DNA from: Minisyncoccota bacterium
GTDB taxonomy: Bacteria > Patescibacteriota > Minisyncoccia > Phycocordibacterales > JAACPR01
Direction of reading: 5' to 3'
DNA length: 36,873 nucleotides
NCBI GenBank assembly: GCA_043728995.1
Contig: JAYTLZ010000016.1
Coordinates: 1 to 36,873, forward strand
Below the pieces are notes generated by a model. It was not told where the DNA came from, ran no database searches, and was given only the letters and a program-made list of their open reading frames with translations. This document shows, piece by piece, positions 1 to 30,162 of the stretch (positions are counted from its first letter, which is position 1; each line of letters begins with the position of its first letter). A program made the translations under genes and the position numbers.

Positions 1-1087
1 TCGTGTGACACTTGTAACACACGACGAGGGTTGCGTTCGTTACCCCACTTAAGGGAACAATTCAAACCACGAACTGACGACGGCCATGCATCACCTGTCT
101 ATGCGTCCGAAGAGGGACTACGTTTCTGTAGCCTTTCGCATAGATTTCTAGCCTTGGTAAGGTTCTTCGTTTATCGACGAATTAAGCCACATGATCCACC
201 GCTTGTGCAAGTCCCCGTCTATTCCTTTGAGTTTTAACCTTGCGGTCGTACTACCCAGGCGCCTGACTTAACGCGTTAGCTCCGCCTCTTGAGGGGTCGA
301 TTCCTCAAAAAGCAAGTCAGGATCGTTTAGGGCACGGACTACTGGGGTATCTAATCCCATTCGCTACCCGTGCTTTCGTCCCTGAGCGTCAGGAATGTGC
401 CAGTATGTTGCCTTCGCATTTGGTGTTCCCCATGATATCAACGGATTTCACCCCTACACCATGAGTTCCACATACCTCTCACATCCTCAAGATCTACCGT
501 TTCCTATGCGTTTTCCCAGTTAAGCCGGGAGATTTCACATAAGACTAATAGTTCCGCCTGCGGACCCTTTACGCCCAATAATTCCGGATAATGCTTGGGG
601 CACTCGTATTACCGCTGCTGCTGGCACGAGTTTAGCAACCCCTTATTCCTAGAGTAACGTCAATAAACTTCCTCCTCTAGAAAAGATCTTTACATGCCGA
701 AACACTTCATCAATCACGCGACATCGCTCCATCAGGCTTGCGCCCATTGTGGAAGATTCTCGACTGCGGCCACCCGTAGGTGTATGGTCCGTGTCTCAGT
801 ACCATCGGTGGGGGTCAGCCTCTCAGCTCCCCTAGGCGTCATTGTCTTGGTGAGCCATTACCTCACCAACTAACTGATACCGTGCAGGCCTCTCCTCAAG
901 CGCATACGCTTTACCCCGTAGGGACTATCAAGTATTAGTCCGTCTTTCGACGGATTATTCCTGACTTGAGGGCAAGTTCCCACATGTTACTACCTCGTCT
1001 GCCACTCGGCTCTAGGCCTCGTTCGACTTGCATGCCTTATCCATGTCGCCAGCATTCATCCTGAGCTAGGATCAAACTCTGAAATTA
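1..1087 (-). rRNA. rrs: 16S rRNA gene, 5' ~1.09 kb only (3' part lies beyond the left window edge)
   Basis: Reverse complement of 1061-1080 is AGAGTTTGATCCTAGCTCAG (27F site). Reverse complement around 607-628 is GTGCCAGCAGCAGCGGTAATAC (515 region). The window starts at the ~1100 region (AACGAACGCAACCC). Confidence 0.95.
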
Positions 1088-4418: not shown

Positions 4419-5762
4419 TTACTTGCCTTTGCTCAGAACTAGTGTCTTAAGTGTCTTGAGTGCAATGATGGCATCCAGGATGATCGAACGGTTCTTTACG
4501 TAAAAGAGGTCGTACGAAAGCTTCTCGCTGGTTGCATCCACGTCGAGACCGTGATGCGGATGATTGTCGTGATAAATCTGCGCCCATCCGGAGAGTCCGG
4601 GCTTGATCAGGTGCCGGACGTTGTAATACGGAATCTGATCCATATAGGACTTCACCGCAAGGTCAAACTCGGGTCGCGGACCGATCAGCGAGATGTCGCC
4701 TTTGAGCACATTCCAGAGCTGTGGCAGCTCGTCGATTCGAGTCTTTCGCAGGAAGGCGCCCACGCGCGTGACCACATTCTTCTTCCCCTCCTCTTTCCAT
4801 CGTCCGCCGTCGTTGGCATACGTCATCGTCCTGAACTTCAGCATCTTGATGATTTTGTTGTTCTTGCCGACGCGTTCCTGTATGGAAAAGAGTCCCTTAC
4901 CGTCGTCGAGCTTGAGTGCGACATACACGAAGGGGTAAAAAACTAGTGATGCCAGCACAAGGAAAAACGAGACGATCATGTCCATAGCCCGCTTGAAGAA
5001 GTCATACAAGGCATGAGGCTTCGACTTCACATTCTCCAGGAACCAGCCATGCTTGACGAGCTGAAGAGGAACTTTATTGTAGACAGCCTCATATACGTCA
5101 GACATCTCGACGAACTGCACGCCCGAGAACATCAGGTCATAGAAAACAGGCAGAATGGGCAGGATCGCGTCATCCTTCGTATCGACAATGACAAAGTCTA
5201 TATCGTCTACGTAAATATTCTGGATCAGCTTGTCCACGTCGACGCCGTCACAGTCCAAATCAAGGAAATACTTTACCTCAAATCCTGACATGCCTCCCGC
5301 AAGATCCTGGCACAGCTGCCTCGCCTCCTCGCCACGACCCACCAGTGAGACTGACCGGTTCCTGCGGCCTGCAAGCAAGGCGCCAGCATACCTCCACAGG
5401 CACAGAAGCACCACCGATATCCCGAGATAGATGAAGAGGTTGGTCTTTGGGGCAATCTGCGTTACCGGAGAAAAGTAGAAAAAAAGCACCGCAATGATCG
5501 AGTTCACTCCCTGGATCTTGAGAACCGACACCAGAATGTCCTGCTTGCTGAAGGATATCCTCTTTTCATACTGGCCGGACACGAAGAATACGAATATCCA
5601 GATCGCAAAAAGGAGCGAGAACGGCACAAGGTGGGTTGCCCAGATCTCATCAGTCGGGAGCCCCAGATACCTGATGCACAACACCAGCCAAAGAGAGGCG
5701 TACAGAACGAGGACATCTCCCAAAACATGCAGAACGGATTCTTTTTTGGATAGCAGATTCAT
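4419..5762 (-). CDS. polyprenyl-phosphate sugar phosphotransferase (bacterial sugar transferase, WbaP/EpsB-like)
   Basis: Multi-TM N-terminus plus a C-terminal bacterial sugar transferase motif ([24 protein letters not shown]). The ATG at 5762 is preferred; an in-frame GTG at 5795 is possible. Confidence 0.85.
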
Positions 5763-10072: not shown

Positions 10073-10189
10073 TCTGTCTTGGCGACTACCTACTCTCGCC
10101 CTGAAGGACTACCATCGGCGCTGACAGGCTTAACTTCCGAGTTCGGAATGAGATCGGGTGTACCCCCGTCGCCAAATCACCAAGACAGA
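10073..10189 (-). rRNA. rrf: 5S rRNA
   Basis: The reverse complement reads UCUGUCUUGG...CCGAACUCGGAAGUUAAGC...GCGCCGAUGGUAGU...GAGAGUAGG...CCAAGACAGA. Helix I closes, and a flanking ATCCAA/TTGGAT pair extends the stem. Confidence 0.93.
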
Positions 10190-10264
10190 AGATTGGATCT
10201 TCTGCTTCATTGTATTAAATATTGAGAAAACGTAAGCTCAAAGCACAAAAAGTCTAAATGGTGA

Positions 10265-10566
<302 letters not shown>

Positions 10567-10871
10567 CATCTACTCAACTTCATGGTTGCGTTACAGCCAT
10601 GAATGATTTCACACATTACTGTGTGGATTGGACTATATCTTCATCACGCGTTCATCTGTGATGGTTAACGTGTAGTCTCTACGGGTCACTGGAATTACTT
10701 CGCAATGTTCCCTCGGTATTGCCCTCTATTGCTAGATAGGGTTCCACCGATATAGTTAACTTGTCTACAACTGCTTGTTATAGCCGCCGTGTCTTTGTTT
10801 GTCTCGCCTCTTTGTCACGGGTTCAGACTGTTCAAAATCCAAATGCATGCTTGCGCATCTTTCGATTCTCA
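10567..10871 (-). mobile_element. ORF-less ~305-nt insertion in 23S at the L2593-type site, group I-intron-like
   Basis: It interrupts the conserved GAxCGU|CGUGAGACAG sequence. The 5' exon ends in U and the insert ends in G (..GAGUAGAUG|CGUGAG). A 13-nt insert segment (10819-10831) is complementary in 12/13 positions to the 5' exon end (10872-10884). Confidence 0.7.
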
Positions 10872-11535
10872 ACGGTCTGAACCCAGCTCGCGTACCTTTT
10901 TAATTGGCGAACAGCCAAACCCTTGGGACCTTCTCCAGCCCCAGGATAAGATGAGCCGACATCGAGGTGCCGAACACTGCCGTCGCTATGGACGCTTAGG
11001 CAGTACCAGCCTGTTATCCCCAGAGTAACTTTTATCCGATAATCTCGAGCACCATCTAATGGTAACTCTCGGTTCACTATGCTCCACTTTCGTGTCTGCT
11101 TGACTTGTACGTCTTACAGTCAGGCTCCCTTTTGCCATTACACTATCGGCACGGTTTCCATTCGCGCCTAGGGAACCTTTGTAGGCCCCTCCGTTACTTT
11201 TTTGGAGGGTAGCGCCCCACTAAAACTGCCCACCAGATACTGTCCCAATAGGGTTTTTCCCTACTGGTTAGATTATATCCCCTCAAAGGATAGTATTTCA
11301 CTGACGACTCCATGTTCCCCGGAAAGAACACTTCAAAGTCTCCTACCTATGCTGCGCAGTGAGGACATATAATCAATACCAAGATGCAGTAAAGCTTCTG
11401 GGGTCTTTTCGTCTATTTGCGGGTAGCCGGCATCTTCACCGGCACTGTATTTTCACCGAGCAAGTCTCCGAGACAGTTCCCCCATCGTTACGCCATTCGT
11501 GCAGGTCTGAATTTACCAGACAAGGAATTTCGCTA

Positions 11536-12399
<864 letters not shown>

Positions 12400-13206
12400 C
12401 AGGGCTTATACAGCGCCAGCCCATAAAATAAATCATGGACCGACCATATTTAACCTTCTGGCATTGGTCAGGCGTCACCCTCTATACATCATCTTACGAT
12501 TTCGCAGAGAGCTGTGTTTTTGATAAACAGTCGCGGGGGAGTCTTTCGCTGCGGCCCATATTGCTATGGGCAAGCCTTATTCCGAAGGTACGGCTGCTTT
12601 TTTGCCGAGTTCCTTGGAGACCTCTCACTCGTTCGCCTTGGTCTGCTCGACCTGACTACCTGTGTCGGTTTGCGGTACGGGTTCGATATAACTAACCTTA
12701 GAAGTTTTTCTTGGACATGTGCTCCCGAACATTTGGATACCCGAAGGCACCATTTTCGTTACGCTTGGAATTGGGTTGCCCCGACTGCCGGATTTGCCTA
12801 ACAGTCTTCCTCACGGCTCGAACGTAAATCCAATAATACGCGTTCAGTACAACTTGCCGTCACTCCATCGAATTATATCGAAGTTACGGAATATTAACCG
12901 TATGTCCATCGGATGCGGATTTCTCCATTTCCTTAGGCCCGACTAACCCTTCGCTGATTACCATTGCAAAGGAAACCTTAGTCTTTCGGCGTGCATGGAT
13001 TTCACATGCATTGTGGTTACTTGTGCCAACATTCTTACTTCGCAACGCTCCACTATGGGTCACCCCTTTAGCTTCGACGCGGTTACGAATACTCTCCTAC
13101 CGCTAGAATCTCCCTGAGGATCATCTAGCCCTAAACTTCGGTATCATGCTTGAGCCCCGATTATTTGCGGTGCAGGATCTCTGAATGAGTGAGCTGTTAC
13201 GCTTTC

Positions 13207-13238
<32 letters not shown>

Positions 13239-13811
13239 TCATTGTCAGAGAAATCCCACCTCCTTAAGTGCACTTAGCATGAATTTTGGGACCTTAATTG
13301 TAGATCTGGGCTGTTTCCCTTTTGACCAATGGAGCTTAGCCCCCACAGTCTAACTGCCAGACTATTAACTTGCGGTATTCGGAGTTTGATAGGTCTTATG
13401 AGATTGCTCCCTATTAAGACCTTCCAGTGCTCTACCCCCACAAGGAACATCTGACGCTAACCCTAAAGCTATTTCGGAGAGAACCAGCTATTACCAGATT
13501 CGATTAGCTTTTCACTCCTTACCACAGGTCATCCGAAGGAGTCGCACGACCAACCGGTTCGGGCCTCCTCCTGCCTTTCGGCAGGATTCACCCTGCCCAT
13601 GGTAAGCTCATCTGGCTTCGGGTCCAATATATACTACGAACGCACTATTCATACTCGGTTTCCCTACGGCTTCACCCCTTCAGGGCTTAACCATGCAATA
13701 TATATTGACTCGTTGGCTCATTCTTCAATAGGCACGCTGTCGAGGATCAAGTCCTCTTCAACTCCTTGTAAACATATGGTTTCAGGTCTATTTCACCGTC
13801 CTTCCGGACTA

Positions 13812-13851
<40 letters not shown>

Positions 13852-14541
13852 TTCTAGAGTATTTAGCCTTACCAGTTAGTTCTGGCAGATTCACTCAGGC
13901 TATTCATGTCCTGAGCTACTCAAGAACAATAAAAATGGTTGATTCGCTTTCGCGTACGGGACTATTACCCTTTAGAGTCGTTCTTTCCAGAACGTTCCAC
14001 TAGCTAATCATTTTGTAACCATTATCCAGTGCTGTATCTCTGTCTTCACTTTCATGAAAACAGAGAAGAGCACTGGAAAATTTATCGTCTTACAACCCCG
14101 CCCGTATAAATACGCACGGTTTGGGCTCGTTCCTTTTCGCTCGCCGCTACTTAGGAAATACTTCGCTTACGCGACTTTTTTTCTTTTCCTCCTGGTACTG
14201 AGATGTTTCACTTCCCAGGGTTCGCTCCCGCTCTCTTTACAAGATTGGGTAACTGAGGTTTGCTCAGTTGGGTTGCCCCATTCGGACACTTCCGGATCAA
14301 AGGTTATTAGGCACCTCCCCGAAACTTATCGCAGCCATATCGCGTCCTTCATCGCCTCTAGAAGCCAAGGCATCCACCATATGCTCTTAAATTTCCTATT
14401 AGGAAATCTAAAAACCACTTTTTAACTTTTTTTGCAGACGTATCACCGTCTGCACTCGTTGAAAATATTTTTCAATTGACTACTTTGACTCTTACTTATT
14501 TCTCAATATTTAGTTGTCAATGAACCCACGACATCTCGTCT

Positions 14542-25310: not shown

Positions 25311-26348
25311 ATGCAAAAGAAAAAAGCAAAAGCGAAAGCAACAAAGACAATTAGCTCCGAGAGCACCATTGAGGAGACACTGAGAGAGATCAAGACAAAG
25401 TTCGGCGAGGAGGCGATCATGAAGCTTGGCGACAGGCCGAAGACGAGCGTTGACGCTATCCCCTCTGGATCAATCGGTCTGGATGAGGCACTTGGCGTTG
25501 GAGGATACCCACGAGGACGAATCATCGAGGTATTCGGACCTGAGTCATCGGGTAAGACGACACTAACCCTGCACGCGATTGCAGAGGCACAGAAGAAGGG
25601 CGGCGTGTGCGCGTTCATCGACGCGGAGCATGCACTTGATCCTGAGTACGCCAAGAGGCTTGGCGTAAAGCTGGACGAGCTTCTCATCTCGCAGCCTGAC
25701 ACCGGAGAGCAGGCGCTTGAGATCGTTGAGAGTTTGGTTCGTAGCGGTAAGATCGACATCGTAGTCATCGACTCCGTTGCGGCACTTACTCCAAAGGACG
25801 AGATCGAAGGAGACATGGGTGCTCACCACGTGGGTAAGCAGGCACGACTGATGTCGCAGGCTCTGCGAAAGCTGACCGCGATTACCGCCAAGAGCAAGAC
25901 CATCGTGATCTTCATCAACCAGATCCGAATGCAGATCGGCGTGATGTTCGGTAACCCTGAGACGACACCAGGAGGAAAGGCGCTGAAGTTCTATACCTCA
26001 GTACGACTCGATATCCGACGAATCGCCCAGATCAAGAAGGGTGAGGAAATCATGGGAGGACGAGTTCGCGTGAAGGTCGTAAAGAACAAAGTTGCTGCCC
26101 CATTCCGGGCTACCGAGTTCGATCTGATGTACAACGAGGGCATCTCACTTGAGGGTGAGCTGATCGCGCTTGGAGAAAAGTACGACATCATCCAGAAGTC
26201 AGGAGCGTCGTACGCGTTCGGCGAGTCCAAGCTGGGACGAGGATATGACGCCACTCGGCAGTTCCTGAAGGAGAATCCGAAGATTACAAAGGAAATCCTT
26301 ACGCTCATCAAGAAGAAGTTCAAGGACGAGGCTGACGCTGCTGCGTAG
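25311..26348 (+). CDS. recA: recombinase RecA
   Basis: Walker [27 protein letters not shown] and [22 protein letters not shown] motifs. Confidence 0.97.
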
Positions 26349-26361
26349 TCTGTAGCTTCCA

Positions 26362-26470
26362 CAAGAACACCAATAGAATAAAAAGGCACGCCGTATTTTT
26401 CTGGGGAAAAATCGGCTGGTGCTCGGGCCGTCGCCCTCCGCAACGCCTTTTTATTCTATTGGTGTTCTTG
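26362..26470 (+). repeat. Long-arm hairpin element, copy 1 (26-bp perfect arms, 57-nt core)
   Basis: Arms CAAGAACACCAATAGAATAAAAAGGC (26362-26387) and GCCTTTTTATTCTATTGGTGTTCTTG (26445-26470). The core plus 3 nt of each arm (26385-26447) recurs reverse-complemented at 29805-29867. Confidence 0.85.
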
Positions 26471-26542
26471 CTTTAGCGGCAGCACAACTCACCAGATACG
26501 CGGGGTTCCATTTTATGGATATTTTGATAGTATGTGGGAACT

Positions 26543-27136
26543 ATGTCTATATTGAATTACAATGAAATCAAGGAGCGAAAGTACATCGTACTGGACGGAG
26601 ATCCATACGAGGTGCTGGAATCTCACGTATTTAGAAAGCAGCAGCGAAAGCCCGTTAACCAGAGCAAGTTGCGAAACTTACTGAACGGATCCGTCCGACA
26701 GGAGACGTTCCATGCCAACGACACGGCTGTAGAGGCAGATATTAACAAGACCAAGTACGTCTTTACATTCATGAAGGCAAACCGACAGACGGGTGTGGAC
26801 GAGTACTGGTTCCACGACAAGGCCAACCGGTCTAACCGGTCTATGGTATTGCGGTCTGTGATCGAGGACTCAGCCAAGTACCTGAAAGAAGGTGCCGAGG
26901 TAGATGCGATGATCTTTAACGACGTGCTGATCGGAATCACCCTCCCAATCAAGATGCAGTTCAAGGTGACCGAGGCTGCACCCGCAGTTAAGGGAAACAC
27001 CGCCAACGGAGCAAGCAAGATCGTGACGATCGAGACGGGAGCGAAGATTACGACGCCGATCTTTATCGTCGAGGGCGACGAGATCATGGTGAACACGGTT
27101 GAGAACAGCTACGTCGAGAAGGCCAAGAGCAACTAG
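26543..27136 (+). CDS. efp: elongation factor P
   Basis: EF-P fold pattern (YIVLDGDPYEVLES...; C-terminal OB domains with VETGAKITTPIFI). The ATG at 26543 is preferred over the track GTG at 26534. Confidence 0.85.
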   Translation: MSILNYNEIKERKYIVLDGDPYEVLESHVFRKQQRKPVNQSKLRNLLNGSVRQETFHANDTAVEADINKTKYVFTFMKANRQTGVDEYWFHDKANRSNRSMVLRSVIEDSAKYLKEGAEVDAMIFNDVLIGITLPIKMQFKVTEAAPAVKGNTANGASKIVTIETGAKITTPIFIVEGDEIMVNTVENSYVEKAKSN

Positions 27137-27181
27137 GCACAGCGTAGTGAAGACTGTTTGAGTCGAGCATACAATTAAGAG

Positions 27182-27215
27182 ACGGCGGAGCACTGCGTGC
27201 TCCGCCGTTTTGTTT
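27182..27215 (+). terminator. Intrinsic terminator of efp
   Basis: ACGGCGGAGCAC-tgc-GTGCTCCGCCGT followed by TTTTGTTT. Confidence 0.85.
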
Positions 27216-27239
27216 ACATGACCTCAATGGGTCCTATGG

Positions 27240-27425
27240 TTACATAATTCTCATGAACCGCGCCTCGTAGTATGCCGTGACCGCGTCATGCATCTGGGCA
27301 TGCTCGCATTCCATTTCATACAGCACGCGATCACGATCGATCTCTGGAACCAAGGGGTCGATCAGGACCGACTTGGTATCCCGCTCCCAGGCAGCAAGGC
27401 TCTCATCCGGATTGGTAATGTTCAT
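27240..27425 (-). CDS. small hypothetical protein (61 aa)
   Basis: ORF only, no recognisable motif. Composition resembles the flanking chromosome. Confidence 0.3.
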   Translation of the reverse strand: MNITNPDESLAAWERDTKSVLIDPLVPEIDRDRVLYEMECEHAQMHDAVTAYYEARFMRIM

Positions 27426-27579
27426 ACGTCCCCTACTTTAGCAAGACGACCTAAAGGAAATATAAAGAAATACCGCATTCAGTTTCCCGAAATACAGCCT
27501 GGAGGGATTTAAGTGCCTGGTCACAAGCGAGAGCTTCATGTGTATTTTGCATCTGCTATCGTAATTAGCACATAGATAA

Positions 27580-28059
27580 TTAAAACCCTATGCCTCTCAA
27601 AAACACCTCAGGTCTAGCGACAAGCTTAACACCCAAGGCATTACACGTATCAGGTATTTTATATCTAGTATCACCCTGTTTCATTGGAAATTCTCTAGTA
27701 AATATTCCGTAGCCGTTATTCTTTGCCTGGGCAATTATTAACGGATCACCGCTCGAATTGAAACTGATGGGATCAACCATGGGATATGTTATGTTAATGG
27801 TGAGTGCGTCCAACTTATCCTTAGACGTAAGAGGAGTGACAAGAGAGGCATTTTTTTGTTTTTTACACCAATCCTTTAGTTCCCTTGGGTGGGTTATCTC
27901 ATCAAACACCACCTCACTTAGTATCCATTTTCCATCCTGAAGCGCCTTCTCAAGTTTATCCCAAAACGGCTTACTTATGGATAGACCTATTGGATTCCAA
28001 AGATGAAAACCGATTAGAGTGTTTGAATCCATTATGTAAATCAGTGCCGGAGTTGTCAT
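27580..28059 (-). CDS. DUF4411-family PIN-like protein (putative nuclease/toxin partner of the ImmA/IrrE gene)
   Basis: The N-terminal YIMDSNTLI and C-terminal YKIPDTCNALGV patterns resemble DUF4411. The start overlaps the upstream gene stop by 4 nt (ATGA). AT-rich. Confidence 0.65.
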   Translation of the reverse strand: MTTPALIYIMDSNTLIGFHLWNPIGLSISKPFWDKLEKALQDGKWILSEVVFDEITHPRELKDWCKKQKNASLVTPLTSKDKLDALTINITYPMVDPISFNSSGDPLIIAQAKNNGYGIFTREFPMKQGDTRYKIPDTCNALGVKLVARPEVFLRGIGF

Positions 28060-29183
28060 ACTTTTTCAACAGAAAACTTAAGGATATTCGAAGCCTCGGT
28101 ATACCCGATTTCATTATTTAAATATGCACCTGAAACAAGCCTATTCAAAAGACCACCGTTAGAATCACGCATATTGTTGTCGTGTGATCCACCTTTTCTC
28201 ACCTCAAGTTTCTTAAGCTTAAGATTCTCTTTCGTCTCATTAACGGCTCTTTTTTCAAACTCGGCGGAATCTACATATCTGATTCTTCCAAGTTCCTTGA
28301 GCCTGTAGAAAGTAGCAAGAACGCTAGTCTTATAAATTTCTGAAATTGCAACAATGTCATCGTAGGATGAAATGTTTTTCTGCAAATCAGCGCTTGGGAG
28401 CAATAATTCCGCAGCTACTCTGTTACAAAAAACTTCTTCAGGAGCGAGACGTCCTTTTGGGTCCCTGAAGTCAGGGTTATTTGAAATCGCATCACTTCTT
28501 CTAAAAAAATGAGCGAGTTCGTGAATAAAAGAAAATATCTGCGCAGAACGCGCATCCTTTCTGTTTATTATGATAAACGGTGCGTAATCATTGGATATAA
28601 ACATTCCTCGCATGTCATCAACTTCTATATTGTGACTCGATATTGTCTTGCCAACGAATATGCCATGCCGCTCGGCAAGTGATATCAAATATTCTAGTAC
28701 TCTTTTTTTTGCATCCGCCCTGTTCTCATTCTTAATGTAGCCCAAGTCAATGTTCAGACTTTTAGCAATATGAGCAGCCAATTTCTCAGGAGAATTTATA
28801 TTTCTTCCACTTCCCTGCAGTTTAACTTTTTCAAATCCTTCCTGCTTAAGCCTTTCCTCAACCCAGTGCTGCCTTCTAATTACAAGATTCACGAGCTTGT
28901 TAACGCCAACGCTGTCATCGATGTTGTGTCCAACTCTATAATCTGGAATGACCTTGTGTTGAGGTATCTCTTGTTCTGAAAAAAATAGAAGGAATGGTAC
29001 CTGATAAAGTGCGGCAATGTTCTCAAGCTGGTTCCATGTAGGCACCGTTTTTCCATCTTCCCATTGGCTAACAACGTCCACATCTTTGGACGTAATTTTC
29101 TTTGAGACATACGAAGTAGAAAGTCCAGAATTTAGTCTCGCATTTTTCAGGTTAGACCTGTTGAGAAGGTTGGAGTAGTCCAT
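28056..29183 (-). CDS. XRE-type HTH fused to ImmA/IrrE-family (COG2856) zinc metallopeptidase
   Basis: N-terminal HTH (LKNARLNSGLSTSYVSKKI...VSQWEDGKTVPTWNQLENIAALYQVP). HEXXH motif in FSFIHELAHFF. A TATAAT lies ~20 nt upstream of the ATG. Confidence 0.8.
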   Translation of the reverse strand: MDYSNLLNRSNLKNARLNSGLSTSYVSKKITSKDVDVVSQWEDGKTVPTWNQLENIAALYQVPFLLFFSEQEIPQHKVIPDYRVGHNIDDSVGVNKLVNLVIRRQHWVEERLKQEGFEKVKLQGSGRNINSPEKLAAHIAKSLNIDLGYIKNENRADAKKRVLEYLISLAERHGIFVGKTISSHNIEVDDMRGMFISNDYAPFIIINRKDARSAQIFSFIHELAHFFRRSDAISNNPDFRDPKGRLAPEEVFCNRVAAELLLPSADLQKNISSYDDIVAISEIYKTSVLATFYRLKELGRIRYVDSAEFEKRAVNETKENLKLKKLEVRKGGSHDNNMRDSNGGLLNRLVSGAYLNNEIGYTEASNILKFSVEKV

Positions 29184-29397
29184 TTACTTATATTATAAAT
29201 TATACACGCGACAACGCCAGCGACATACGGGCATAATCCACATCTTACAGCAAGCTTGGCACTCATATCACGCCTCGTCCTGATCTGCCTCTGGTGACAT
29301 TGTGATTATGTCGACCTTACCACCGTAGCCAATACATGTCCAATTCCGCTTAAATACCCATCATTCTTCGAGTGAATCTGTATGTAAATGTAACTGA

Positions 29398-29763
29398 TCA
29401 AAACTTCAGCTTATCCCTAAAATACTCCTTCTGCGAGTACGCGATTGCGCCGAGCGAGATCATGAGCCCCGCTAGCAGGCCAACGTCGCTGTGCGCGTTC
29501 ACCATAAGCCGCTGCAAGGATACGATTGAGATGACTACCATGGCAAAGACGAAGAACGGCGTACGCCAGGACTTGTTCTGGTCCACATAGAACCAGACGA
29601 CGTACAAGCAGAAAATGGTAATAGTAATATGCGCAGATGCATCGAAGCGTATTTCCTCACCAAAAAGCTGCATCGGAATCAGCTTGAACAGAAGAAGTCC
29701 AAGTACCATGAGACTTCCCGCTCGCATCAGGGCACTTAGTTTCTTGTACGTTACTTTTCTCAT
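29398..29763 (-). CDS. small integral membrane protein (121 aa, ~4 TM helices)
   Basis: ORF with four hydrophobic segments. The start lies 19 nt downstream of hairpin element copy 2. Confidence 0.6.
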   Translation of the reverse strand: MRKVTYKKLSALMRAGSLMVLGLLLFKLIPMQLFGEEIRFDASAHITITIFCLYVVWFYVDQNKSWRTPFFVFAMVVISIVSLQRLMVNAHSDVGLLAGLMISLGAIAYSQKEYFRDKLKF

Positions 29764-29781
29764 GGCTGAATTATATCAGAA

Positions 29782-29890
29782 CCGCAGGAAATATTTGCAG
29801 GGAGGGCGTTGCGGAGGGCGACGGCGCGAGCACCAGCCGATTTTTCCCCAGAAAAATACGGCGTGCCCTTGCTGCAAATATTTCCTGTGG
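29782..29890 (-). repeat. Long-arm hairpin element, copy 2 (same core as copy 1, unrelated arms)
   Basis: Arms CCGCAGGAAATATTTGCAGGGAGGGC (29782-29807) and GCCCTTGCTGCAAATATTTCCTGTGG (29865-29890) pair at 22 Watson-Crick positions plus one G.U of 26. Positions 29805-29867 match the reverse complement of 26385-26447 at 62/63 positions. Confidence 0.85.
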
Positions 29891-29910
29891 CTCTGAAGTA
29901 ATAACATATA

Positions 29911-29949
29911 GCAAAAGCCGCGAGACAGAATATGTCTCGCGGCTTTTGC
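29911..29949 (-). terminator. Intrinsic terminator of the rpsF-ssb-rpsR operon
   Basis: GCAAAAGCCGCGAGACA-gaata-TGTCTCGCGGCTTTTGC, a 17-bp stem just downstream of the rpsR stop. Confidence 0.85.
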
Positions 29950-29955
29950 CTTGTG

Positions 29956-30162
29956 TTAGTTCTTGAGGTACGGCATAAGTCCCATGAACCGAGATCGCTT
30001 GATAGCCATGGCTACCTTGCGCTGGTTCTTGGCGTTAAGGCCTGTTCGTCGTCGTGAAAGCATTCGTCCGAATGGGTTCACAAACTTCGTCAGGATCTCA
30101 ACAGCCTTGAAGTCTACATGCTTGATCTGATTCTCCTCAAAATAATCGCTCATTTTGCTCAT
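29956..30162 (-). CDS. rpsR: 30S ribosomal protein S18
   Basis: 68 aa with FVNPFGRMLSRRRTGLNAKNQRKVAMAIKRSRFMGLMPY, typical of S18. Confidence 0.93.
   Translation of the reverse strand: MSKMSDYFEENQIKHVDFKAVEILTKFVNPFGRMLSRRRTGLNAKNQRKVAMAIKRSRFMGLMPYLKN

Follow-up and report, generated by a model that had tools for sequence, protein, structure and literature searches.

A dispersed intergenic hairpin of Parcubacteria with a conserved three-way-junction tip on a stem of free sequence

Contig JAYTLZ010000016.1, a stretch of 36,873 nt that we analyzed at its full length and call the window, carries two long hairpins that lie ~3.4 kb apart in opposite orientation, copy 1 between recA and efp and copy 2 behind the rpsF-ssb-rpsR operon. 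The pair raises a simple question: what kind of element keeps its center almost identical between two sites while the arms that enclose it are unrelated in sequence and still complementary to each other? A first-pass annotation, made from the letters alone, had offered two answers, namely that the stem is selected as structure or that a core unit had moved into the loops of older palindromes. Here, we describe the element as a structured intergenic repeat in which the usual pattern of conservation is inverted, in a lineage for which few such repeats have been described. The reading we favor, with a probability of roughly 0.45, is that it is a structured DNA repeat, akin to repetitive extragenic palindromes (REPs) and miniature inverted-repeat transposable elements (MITEs), that acts as a folded single strand.

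Two hairpins with one core and unrelated arms

The cores are the constant part of the two copies. Recomputation reproduced the earlier count of 62 identities over 63 positions between 26385-26447 and the reverse complement of 29805-29867, the sole difference being at position 26426 (G versus C), and a repeat search of the window extended the match to 66 nt at 97% (26382-26447 / 29805-29870). Searches of the window for two sub-patterns of the core, with as many as 3 mismatches tolerated, returned exactly two matches for each, where shuffled sequence leads one to expect 0. When covariance model R1 was run over the window, the only true copies were these two (97.7 bits for copy 1 and 88.6 bits, E = 1.6e-23, for copy 2), the other weak matches being ordinary terminator hairpins. 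Throughout, the model strand is the one that reads CCGTATTTTTC / ACGCCGTATTTTTC, and its complement is called the wobble-tolerant strand.

The arms are paired in both copies and unlike between them. All 26 positions pair in copy 1 (26362-26387 / 26445-26470). For copy 2, self-complementarity over 26 positions (29782-29807 / 29865-29890) was upheld, while the reported 22 Watson-Crick pairs plus one G.U has to be corrected to 23 Watson-Crick pairs plus 2 G.T, and the full palindrome is longer, with 38-nt arms that are 84% complementary (Table 1). Compared in the same polarity, the arms of the two copies agree at 11 of 26 positions, a common GGC included, which is near chance; the earlier statement that they are unrelated thus stands. 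Folding was far better than for shuffled sequence for either copy on either strand (z = -8 to -10), with energies of -68 to -75 kcal/mol and z = -8 to -9.5 for copy 2.

A family of homologues so far known only from Parcubacteria

A 25-mer pattern of P2, one of the two hairpins in the tip of the element, with its loop left free, matched 51 metagenome loci, of which ~28 are true homologues. The remaining matches, about half, have the loop GATNG and belong to an unrelated, conserved soil sequence that looks protein coding; they were discarded. The same pattern found 26 stretches in 16 metagenome-assembled genomes (MAGs), and the named MAGs among these are Candidatus Niyogi-, Kaiser-, Nomura-, Harrison-, or Giovannonibacteria or Parcubacteria. 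So far, then, the family is seen only in Parcubacteria, within the candidate phyla radiation, and the closest homologues of the window's proteins carry Parcubacteria names, in keeping with this distribution, as are the group I intron and the LAGLIDADG ORF of its 23S rRNA gene. Copies with exact P2 number 1 to 4 per MAG, and the window has two in 37 kb; model R1 finds more diverged copies, including four within 14.7 kb in L030. An exact 22-mer of the window's P2, with its loop TGGG, had no match among species-representative genome contigs, so either the species of the window is not among the representatives or the TGGG variant is private to it.

Database searches placed the element in no described family. 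An Rfam 15 scan of the window at gathering thresholds returned only the rRNAs and a group I intron. Scans by E value (26200-30100 of the window and 6515-6660 of L062) returned microRNA-precursor models on the long stem, which we regard as artefacts of that stem, and a sub-threshold His_leader match at 29842-29952 (40.8 bits against a gathering threshold of 49), which is spurious and rests on the rpsR terminator hairpin together with part of the element. BLASTn searches of phage and plasmid sequences and pattern scans of viral contigs gave no match, so no known phage or plasmid accounts for the core, and full-text literature searches found no description of the element. P2 was also considered as a group II intron domain V, which it recalls in its GAGCCG start, bulge, and tetraloop; this was dropped, given no Intron_gpII match, a loop that is not GNRA, and no domain VI.

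A three-way junction supported by covariation

In alignment A1, which comprises 47 family members and is the basis of the structure and of all pair counts, the element folds as a three-way junction in which a long stem, P1, carries two hairpins, P2 and P3. P1 is usually 20 to 36 bp in total. Near the core it has a semi-conserved A-run or T-run and then GG/CC, and further outward it can have any sequence. The conserved tip of ~57 to 60 nt holds P2 and P3, and the remaining 15 to 30 bp of stem are free in sequence yet paired. The first-pass annotation had remarked on a GGC/GCC junction next to the core in both copies; across the family GG/CC is indeed a conserved closing pair (G12 in 43 of 47 sequences), while the third pair varies. 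P2 is A/T rich and has the consensus G-CCG-(bulged T)-ATTTTTC, a 4-nt loop, and GAAAAAT-CGG-C, its closing G-C pair being replaced by A-T in four sequences. In P3, a four-pair outer stem (P3a) bearing a conserved purine.A mismatch is separated by the internal loop TC/TCC from a 4-bp inner stem (P3b), which is capped by the loop CGTC. In two further copies (L009 5521-5610 and L016 597-724), an extra hairpin of ~40 nt is nested inside P3.

Pairing statistics argue that the stem is selected as structure, as the first of the two earlier answers proposed. In the alignment, 90.5% of the cells assigned to pairs are paired, and this fraction collapses to 39.7 to 49.4% when the 3' partners are slid by 1 to 3 columns; the covariation score likewise falls from 0.462 to 0.10 to 0.16. 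All 13 of the P1 pairs examined change on both sides across the 47 members, as do three of four P3a pairs and four of four P3b pairs, the exception being an invariant C-G pair in P3a. The P3b alleles illustrate this well: GCGC/GCGC, GGGC/GCCC, AGCT/AGCT, GCAC/GTGC, GCCT/AGGC, and CCGC/GCGG. The single difference between the window copies leaves copy 2 with a C.C mismatch in P3b, as if this copy were halfway from one of the common alleles, GGGC/GCCC and GCGC/GCGC, to the other. Compensatory changes are also seen between relatives filled at the same site, namely L011 versus L019 and the rpmE|prfA locus of Kaiserbacteria. P2 is invariant in A1 because it served as the search key; in diverged copies recovered by model R1, P2 varies while its pairing and a TGCT loop are kept.

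The fold favors one strand regardless of gene direction

Mismatches in the stems are distributed unevenly between the strands. Read on the model strand, they are A.C in 34 cases and G.T in 9 overall; for the 13 stem pairs closest to the core the numbers are 40 and 11, and within P3 the count is five sequences (four of them independent) against 0, with four misaligned sequences set aside. An excess of A.C on the model strand means G.U (or G.T) wobbles on the complementary strand, plus at copy 2 and minus at copy 1. The ratio of A.C to G.T is 23:5 where genes run with the model strand and 10:2 where they run against it. Since the bias is the same for both gene directions, transcription-linked mutation bias fails as its cause. 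We regard the single-strand trend as consistent but not overwhelming. The window, where GC skew merely tracks gene strand and the two copies are oppositely oriented, does not bear on a possible link between the orientation of the element and the direction of replication.

The element fills the space between a stop codon and the next promoter

In the loci examined the element is always intergenic. A stop codon typically lies 1 to 20 nt ahead of it, and ~25 nt separate its end from the start codon that follows; in this second gap there is an extended -10 box (TGnTAnAAT) 6 to 9 nt before the ATG, without a Shine-Dalgarno sequence, an arrangement that suggests widespread leaderless mRNAs in these genomes. 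The gene context described earlier for the window was confirmed, with copy 1 after recA and before efp and copy 2 after rpsF-ssb-rpsR and 6 to 18 nt before the start of a gene for a PAP2-like membrane protein. A canonical intrinsic terminator, separate from the element, sits between rpsR and copy 2. With a bidirectional terminator on one side and an extended -10 promoter on the other, copy 2 probably receives little transcription from either neighbor. The TGnTATAAT box before the ATG is kept in relatives that have no copy 2.

Neighboring genes, which we assigned by reading translated N-terminal sequences, are assorted housekeeping genes (rpmE, prfA, rpsB, tsf, lepA, gyrA/B, topA, ruvC, smpB, nusB, and rnc) among which we found no common functional theme. 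In L030 the order is rpmE, element, prfA, element, rpsB, element, tsf. The two window copies have the same polarity relative to their flanking genes, as had been noted, but this holds for only about two thirds of loci elsewhere. Among the loci listed, the model strand is codirectional with both neighbors in about half; it is opposed to both in ~10, the two neighbors converge on the element in ~10, and they diverge from it in three.

Whole hairpins are gained and lost, and cores are kept alike within a genome

Orthologous loci of relatives were found through the PAP2-like protein and EF-P, and their segments are mostly 77 to 93% identical to the window at the DNA level (BLASTn). At the rpsR|PAP2 site, the window, L083, and L085 have the element, and L036, L086, L087, L089, and L092 lack it. 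At the empty sites the rpsR terminator runs directly into the promoter, with no palindrome resembling the arms of copy 2. The insertion of a core into a pre-existing palindrome, the second of the earlier answers, is for this reason unsupported for copy 2. L036 reads GCTATAT-AAT, as would the window without the block that its two ATAT repeats enclose; the filled and the empty site therefore differ by the whole hairpin, arms included. We also asked whether the ancestral PAP2 promoter had been duplicated in inverted form to give the outer part of the 5' arm in copy 2 (11 of 14 matches), an idea weakened by the empty site of L036, which shows that only TATAAT, and not TTCTG, need be ancestral. The rpsR terminator of L086 (2405-2482) combines a stem of 23 bp with a loop of 28 nt, and a stretch of that loop, GCGACTCCG, resembles the 3' half of the core; judging by this resemblance, the terminator may enclose a copy that has decayed.

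At the recA|efp site, only the window and L036 carry the element; the spacer lacks copy 1 in L082, L084, L091, L093, L094, L087, and L089, and in the first five of these it is 39 to 81 nt long, with a plain terminator hairpin in four of the five. The outer 10 bp of the copy 1 arms resemble the stem of the ancestral recA terminator, yet a remnant of the right half of that terminator persists downstream of copy 1, so the origin of these arms is ambiguous, and with it the bearing of this copy on the second earlier answer. In L036 (~4620-4680, minus strand), a coreless 19-bp perfect palindrome with a 17-nt loop directly follows recA, and its outer stem matches the ancestral recA terminator; coreless hairpins in this lineage thus also grow by palindromic additions at their tips. 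The prfA|rpsB site of Kaiserbacteria shows a comparable range of states: L026 has the element there and L030 an enlarged form of it, L003 retains a decayed remnant without arms, L044 has a hairpin without a core, and L066 has nothing.

Arms turn over in what look like episodes, in which the middle 6 to 14 bp of both arms are replaced in step while the outer and inner parts stay. At the copy 2 site, L083 shares with the window the 18-nt center of each arm (CACAGGAAATATTTGCAG in the 5' arm), whereas L085 has the same core with the arm middle replaced; at the copy 1 site, the window and L036 differ in the same manner. The cores behave otherwise. Both window copies have the P2 loop TGGG, while all relatives, even those filled at the same sites, have TGGT or TGCT. 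A shared TGGG on unrelated arms indicates that the cores of one genome are kept alike, that is, homogenized. Independent metagenome assemblies, including others of the window's organism, end inside the core (contig ends of L079, L080, L082, and L085).

One subfamily is more conventional. In Niyogibacteria (alignment A3: L052, L057, L061, L065, L072, and L077), a whole unit of ~146 nt is repeated at unrelated sites with the conserved terminal inverted repeat TAGAACTCATTTCAAAA and TA on both flanks, as in MITEs. Terminal inverted repeats are alike among copies in these genomes and in the WY3 MAGs and unlike among copies in the window, in L009, and in a Kaiserbacteria MAG (JARIGM01). In L045, one copy adjoins a 395-aa open reading frame (ORF) that looks DDE-transposase-like by eye and has no Pfam match.

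A structured DNA repeat as the preferred reading

We group the element with small structured intergenic repeats because it occurs in several copies beside unrelated genes, is present or absent between relatives, breaks assemblies, has homogenized cores, and includes the MITE-like Niyogibacteria subfamily. As we read it, the element sits in the otherwise unused stretch from a stop codon or terminator to the promoter that follows, is gained and lost as a whole hairpin between related genomes, and has cores that are kept alike within a genome, by gene conversion or copying, while the fold is selected in one strand whatever the direction of the neighboring genes. These four features together lead us to infer that the active form is a folded single strand. 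It would most likely be single-stranded DNA during spread or maintenance, recognized by shape, because the strand-specific fold ignores gene direction and there is no room for a promoter. A trans-acting protein would then recognize the conserved tip and the shape of the stem, not its sequence, and any effect on transcription termination or insulation would be secondary.

A number of findings weigh against this reading. In the window we found no transposase, HUH nuclease, or recombinase, and none stands consistently beside copies in the 8-kb pieces examined. Nor was a consistent target-site duplication found, the best flanking direct repeat averaging 3.8 nt against 3.5 nt at controls; isolated flanking repeats do occur (ATAT at copy 2 versus L036, GCTTCGC at rpmE|prfA, and TA in Niyogibacteria). 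In most genomes the arms differ between copies, unlike those of a classical MITE. The element is retained at the same loci across species, for example at rpmE|prfA in at least eight Kaiserbacteria contigs, and core identity outside the searched 25-mer falls from 100% to 42% with host distance, a pattern that fits long vertical residence under purifying selection, as would be expected of a functional RNA. After related loci are collapsed, the strand polarity amounts to 8 groups against 2, and the strand test is equally compatible with RNA and with single-stranded DNA, which it cannot separate. Finally, the wobble-tolerant strand has an RNA-like composition. Its unpaired consensus positions are purines in 14 of 19 cases, with a P3 internal loop GGA/GA, loops GACG and ANCA, and a bulged A, and the stems at 9 of 30 loci end in or are interrupted by TC...TC, that is, by tandem G.A on the complement. 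Purine-rich unpaired positions and tandem G.A pairs are typical of structured RNA.

Alternative explanations

The main rival to this reading is a structured noncoding RNA, which would be transcribed from the complement of CCGTATTTTTC (plus at copy 2, minus at copy 1); we consider it possible, although less probable than a DNA repeat. The tip would be functional, for example as a protein-binding module, the free stem would protect the RNA or serve as a stalk for RNase III processing, and the several gene copies in a genome would evolve in concert. Besides the purine-rich loops and junctions, the tandem G.A at stem ends, the retention of loci across species, and the rise of core divergence with host distance, such an RNA would explain the covariation in P1 and P3 and the confinement of G.U wobbles to one strand. 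These organisms also encode RNase III, and rnc itself, assigned by its N-terminal sequence, adjoins the element in L074. What counts against an RNA is chiefly the setting of the element. In about two thirds of loci the wobble-tolerant strand is antisense to both neighbors, and in many the gaps beside the hairpin are ~25 nt or less, which leaves no room for a dedicated promoter; none is conserved, and nothing convincing was found upstream of copy 2 or at the Kaiserbacteria locus. The stem is not followed by a U-tract on either strand, with 1.5 T per 8 nt after the outer stem on the wobble-tolerant strand and 2.7 per 8 nt on the other. Furthermore, the element has no link to any gene class, its sites are gained and lost between relatives, and no Rfam family matches it.

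An elaborate intrinsic terminator or insulator, whose long hairpin would stop read-through and antisense transcription and whose tip would be a lineage-specific decoration of the loop, appears unlikely. It would suit the placement just past stop codons and the loci L016 and L062, in which the element fills the entire gap between convergent genes. In one subtype the stem base, A-run-GG...CC-T-run, resembles a bidirectional terminator (copy 1 reads AAAAAGGC...GCCTTTTT), and the likeness of the outer arms of copy 1 to the ancestral recA terminator stem points the same way. However, copy 2 lies downstream of a complete canonical terminator, and it is this neighboring rpsR terminator, not the elements, that the terminator scan calls. 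In the Kaiserbacteria subtype the polarity of the runs is reversed (TTTTTCGG...CCGAAAAA) with no U-tract after the hairpin on either strand, the outer stem has no U-rich tail, and three loci lie between divergent gene starts. A terminator would also have no need for a conserved, covarying two-hairpin tip with a polarity independent of the genes.

We hold it to be still more doubtful that the conserved T-shaped tip is by itself a self-propagating module, active as a folded single-stranded nucleic acid and copied or converted between sites without its arms. Each tip would in that case take up a complementary stem, or rebuild one out of the sequence around it, as might happen through snap-back synthesis primed at the GG/CC junction. 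Such a module would explain why identical cores sit on unrelated and nearly perfect arms and why arm middles are replaced in step at a fixed site, and it would fit the wobble bias and the lack of target-site duplications. If true, it would make the element a palindrome-seeding element, for which we know of no described counterpart in bacteria.

A double-stranded DNA site, such as a palindromic operator or cruciform bound by a dimeric DNA-binding or nucleoid protein, with ATTTTTC-N4-GAAAAAT of P2 as the recognition sequence, is very improbable, since a duplex site would not be expected to show compensatory changes in P1 and P3 or wobbles biased to one strand, and the invariant bulged base breaks the symmetry of P2, even though this 7-4-7 inverted repeat is the best-conserved sequence of the element and copy 2 lies directly upstream of a promoter.

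Relation to known repeats and structured single strands

Integron attC sites, REPs, and the ends of IS200/IS605 elements all work as folded single strands that are recognized by shape, and a structured DNA repeat of the kind we favor would join them in this respect. Integron attC sites in particular are imperfect palindromes with extrahelical bases and variable sequence, of which one folded strand is active. Yet attC sites have conserved boxes at the base of the stem and a variable tip, which is the opposite of what we see in the element, and they are found at the boundaries of gene cassettes near intI, whereas the element lies between housekeeping genes; we do not class it as an attC site. 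The T-shaped terminal hairpins of parvoviruses and single-strand origins of the ssoA type are likewise functional as single-stranded DNA of one polarity. They resemble the element in shape only, in that two small hairpins top a long stem or a variable stem carries a conserved loop; they are found at genome ends or on plasmids, together with a Rep protein or priming by RNA polymerase, and the element is dispersed in the chromosome. Palindromes derived from IS200/IS605 have two similar subterminal hairpins and a fixed left target of 4 to 5 nt, and occur with a TnpA (Y1) gene in the genome; in the element, P2 and P3 differ from each other in sequence, and the only fixed flank is GG...CC.

Long-hairpin MITEs of bacteria (Correia/NEMIS of Neisseria, ERIC/IRU, RUP, and BOX), as portrayed in extracts of PMC3184786 and PMC2229807 and in general knowledge, are like the element in being ~100 to 150 bp long, noncoding, dispersed, and intergenic, in that the whole unit is a long hairpin, in the gain and loss of sites between relatives, and in that their ends can overlap promoters. 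The Niyogibacteria unit comes closest to them through its terminal repeats and TA flanks. On the same accounts, MITEs conserve their terminal inverted repeats and vary in the center, whereas the element conserves its center across candidate orders and usually has different arms within one genome. Unlike MITEs, it has no consistent target-site duplication, a low copy number, and no cognate transposase in the window.

REPs, with the BIMEs and REPINs built from them and the associated RAYT (Y1 HUH) transposases, were compared through excerpts of PMC3733652 and general knowledge. As far as these go, REPs share with the element an extragenic, palindromic nature, a position after genes, and a conserved structure with strand polarity; they are thought to act as folded single-stranded DNA, and their copies evolve in concert within a genome, as the cores of the element do. 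REPs are, however, simple hairpins of 20 to 40 nt, tagged at one end with a conserved GTAG or CGTC and present in tens to hundreds of copies. The element is instead a three-way junction of ~100 to 130 nt with a stem of free sequence and few copies, and its CGTC is the P3 loop and not an end tag, so we do not call it a REP.

A covarying three-way junction found across several candidate orders would be either a new structured RNA or a new kind of structure-recognized DNA repeat, and either reading implies an unknown trans-acting partner. Bacteria of the candidate phyla radiation have genomes of ~1 Mb, in which repeats are little described, and have not yet been grown alone. The element breaks assemblies at its core and marks sites at which strains are rearranged relative to each other, which matters for the reconstruction of MAGs.

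Coordinates and other features of the window

Positions of the two copies, of their parts, and of the surrounding features are collected in Table 1.

Table 1. Features of the window, with positions counted from its first nucleotide
Feature	Position	Strand	Basis	Remark
Copy 2, whole palindromic element	29770..29902	model strand - (reads ACGCCGTATTTTTC); wobble-tolerant strand +	inverted repeat I2	
Copy 2, match to covariance model R1	29791-29877	-	covariance model	
Copy 2, 5' arm of P1 on model strand (ATTACTTCAGAGCCACAGGAAATATTTGCAGCAAGGGC)	29865..29902	-	inverted repeat	
Copy 2, 57-nt conserved core: junction AC, P2, junction T, P3	29808..29864	-	match to copy 1, alignment A1, pair counts	
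Copy 2, P2: G-CCG-(T bulge)-ATTTTTC, loop TGGG, GAAAAAT-CGG-C	29836..29862	-	pattern match, fold	
Copy 2, P3: P3a G.TGC/GCA.C, internal loop TC/TCC, P3b GCGC/GCCC, loop CGTC	29808..29834	-		
Copy 2, 3' arm of P1 on model strand	29770..29807	-		outer part overlaps promoter TGATATAAT
Extended -10 promoter TGATATAAT of PAP2-like gene	29770-29778			inside outer 3' arm of copy 2
Extended -10 boxes	29770-29778, 26526-26534			also at Kaiserbacteria loci such as L026, L037, L063
PAP2-like membrane protein gene	29398-29763	-		
Bidirectional canonical intrinsic terminator of rpsF-ssb-rpsR	29910..29950	.	terminator scan, both strands	kept in relatives
Copy 1, whole element: 26-bp perfect stem and core	26362..26470	+; wobble-tolerant strand -	inverted repeat I5	100% complementary
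Copy 1, core (57 nt)	26388-26444			
Copy 1, P2	26390-26416			
Copy 1, P3	26418-26444			
recA	25311-26348			
efp	26543-27136			
Low-GC island	27580-29183			between the element copies
16S rRNA gene	1-1087	-		
5S rRNA gene	10077-10184			
23S rRNA gene	10274-14403	-		
Inverted repeat, 39 nt	10247-10285 / 14394-14432			flanks 23S rRNA gene

Between the two copies lies a low-GC island (0.43) that encodes a DUF4411 (PIN-like) protein and a Peptidase_M78/ImmA-like protein; it is absent from all relatives examined (L036, L082, L084, L087, L089, and L092). The rRNA genes do not form a standard operon: protein-coding genes separate the 5S gene from the 16S gene, which lies on the same strand and starts ~9 kb further downstream. 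The 23S rRNA gene is 4130 nt long, against 2925 nt for the model, and has a group I intron; the segments 10609-10844 and 11570-12184 are marked within this region, and there is a separate ORF for a 204-aa LAGLIDADG endonuclease. The inverted repeat that flanks the 23S gene is probably its processing stem.

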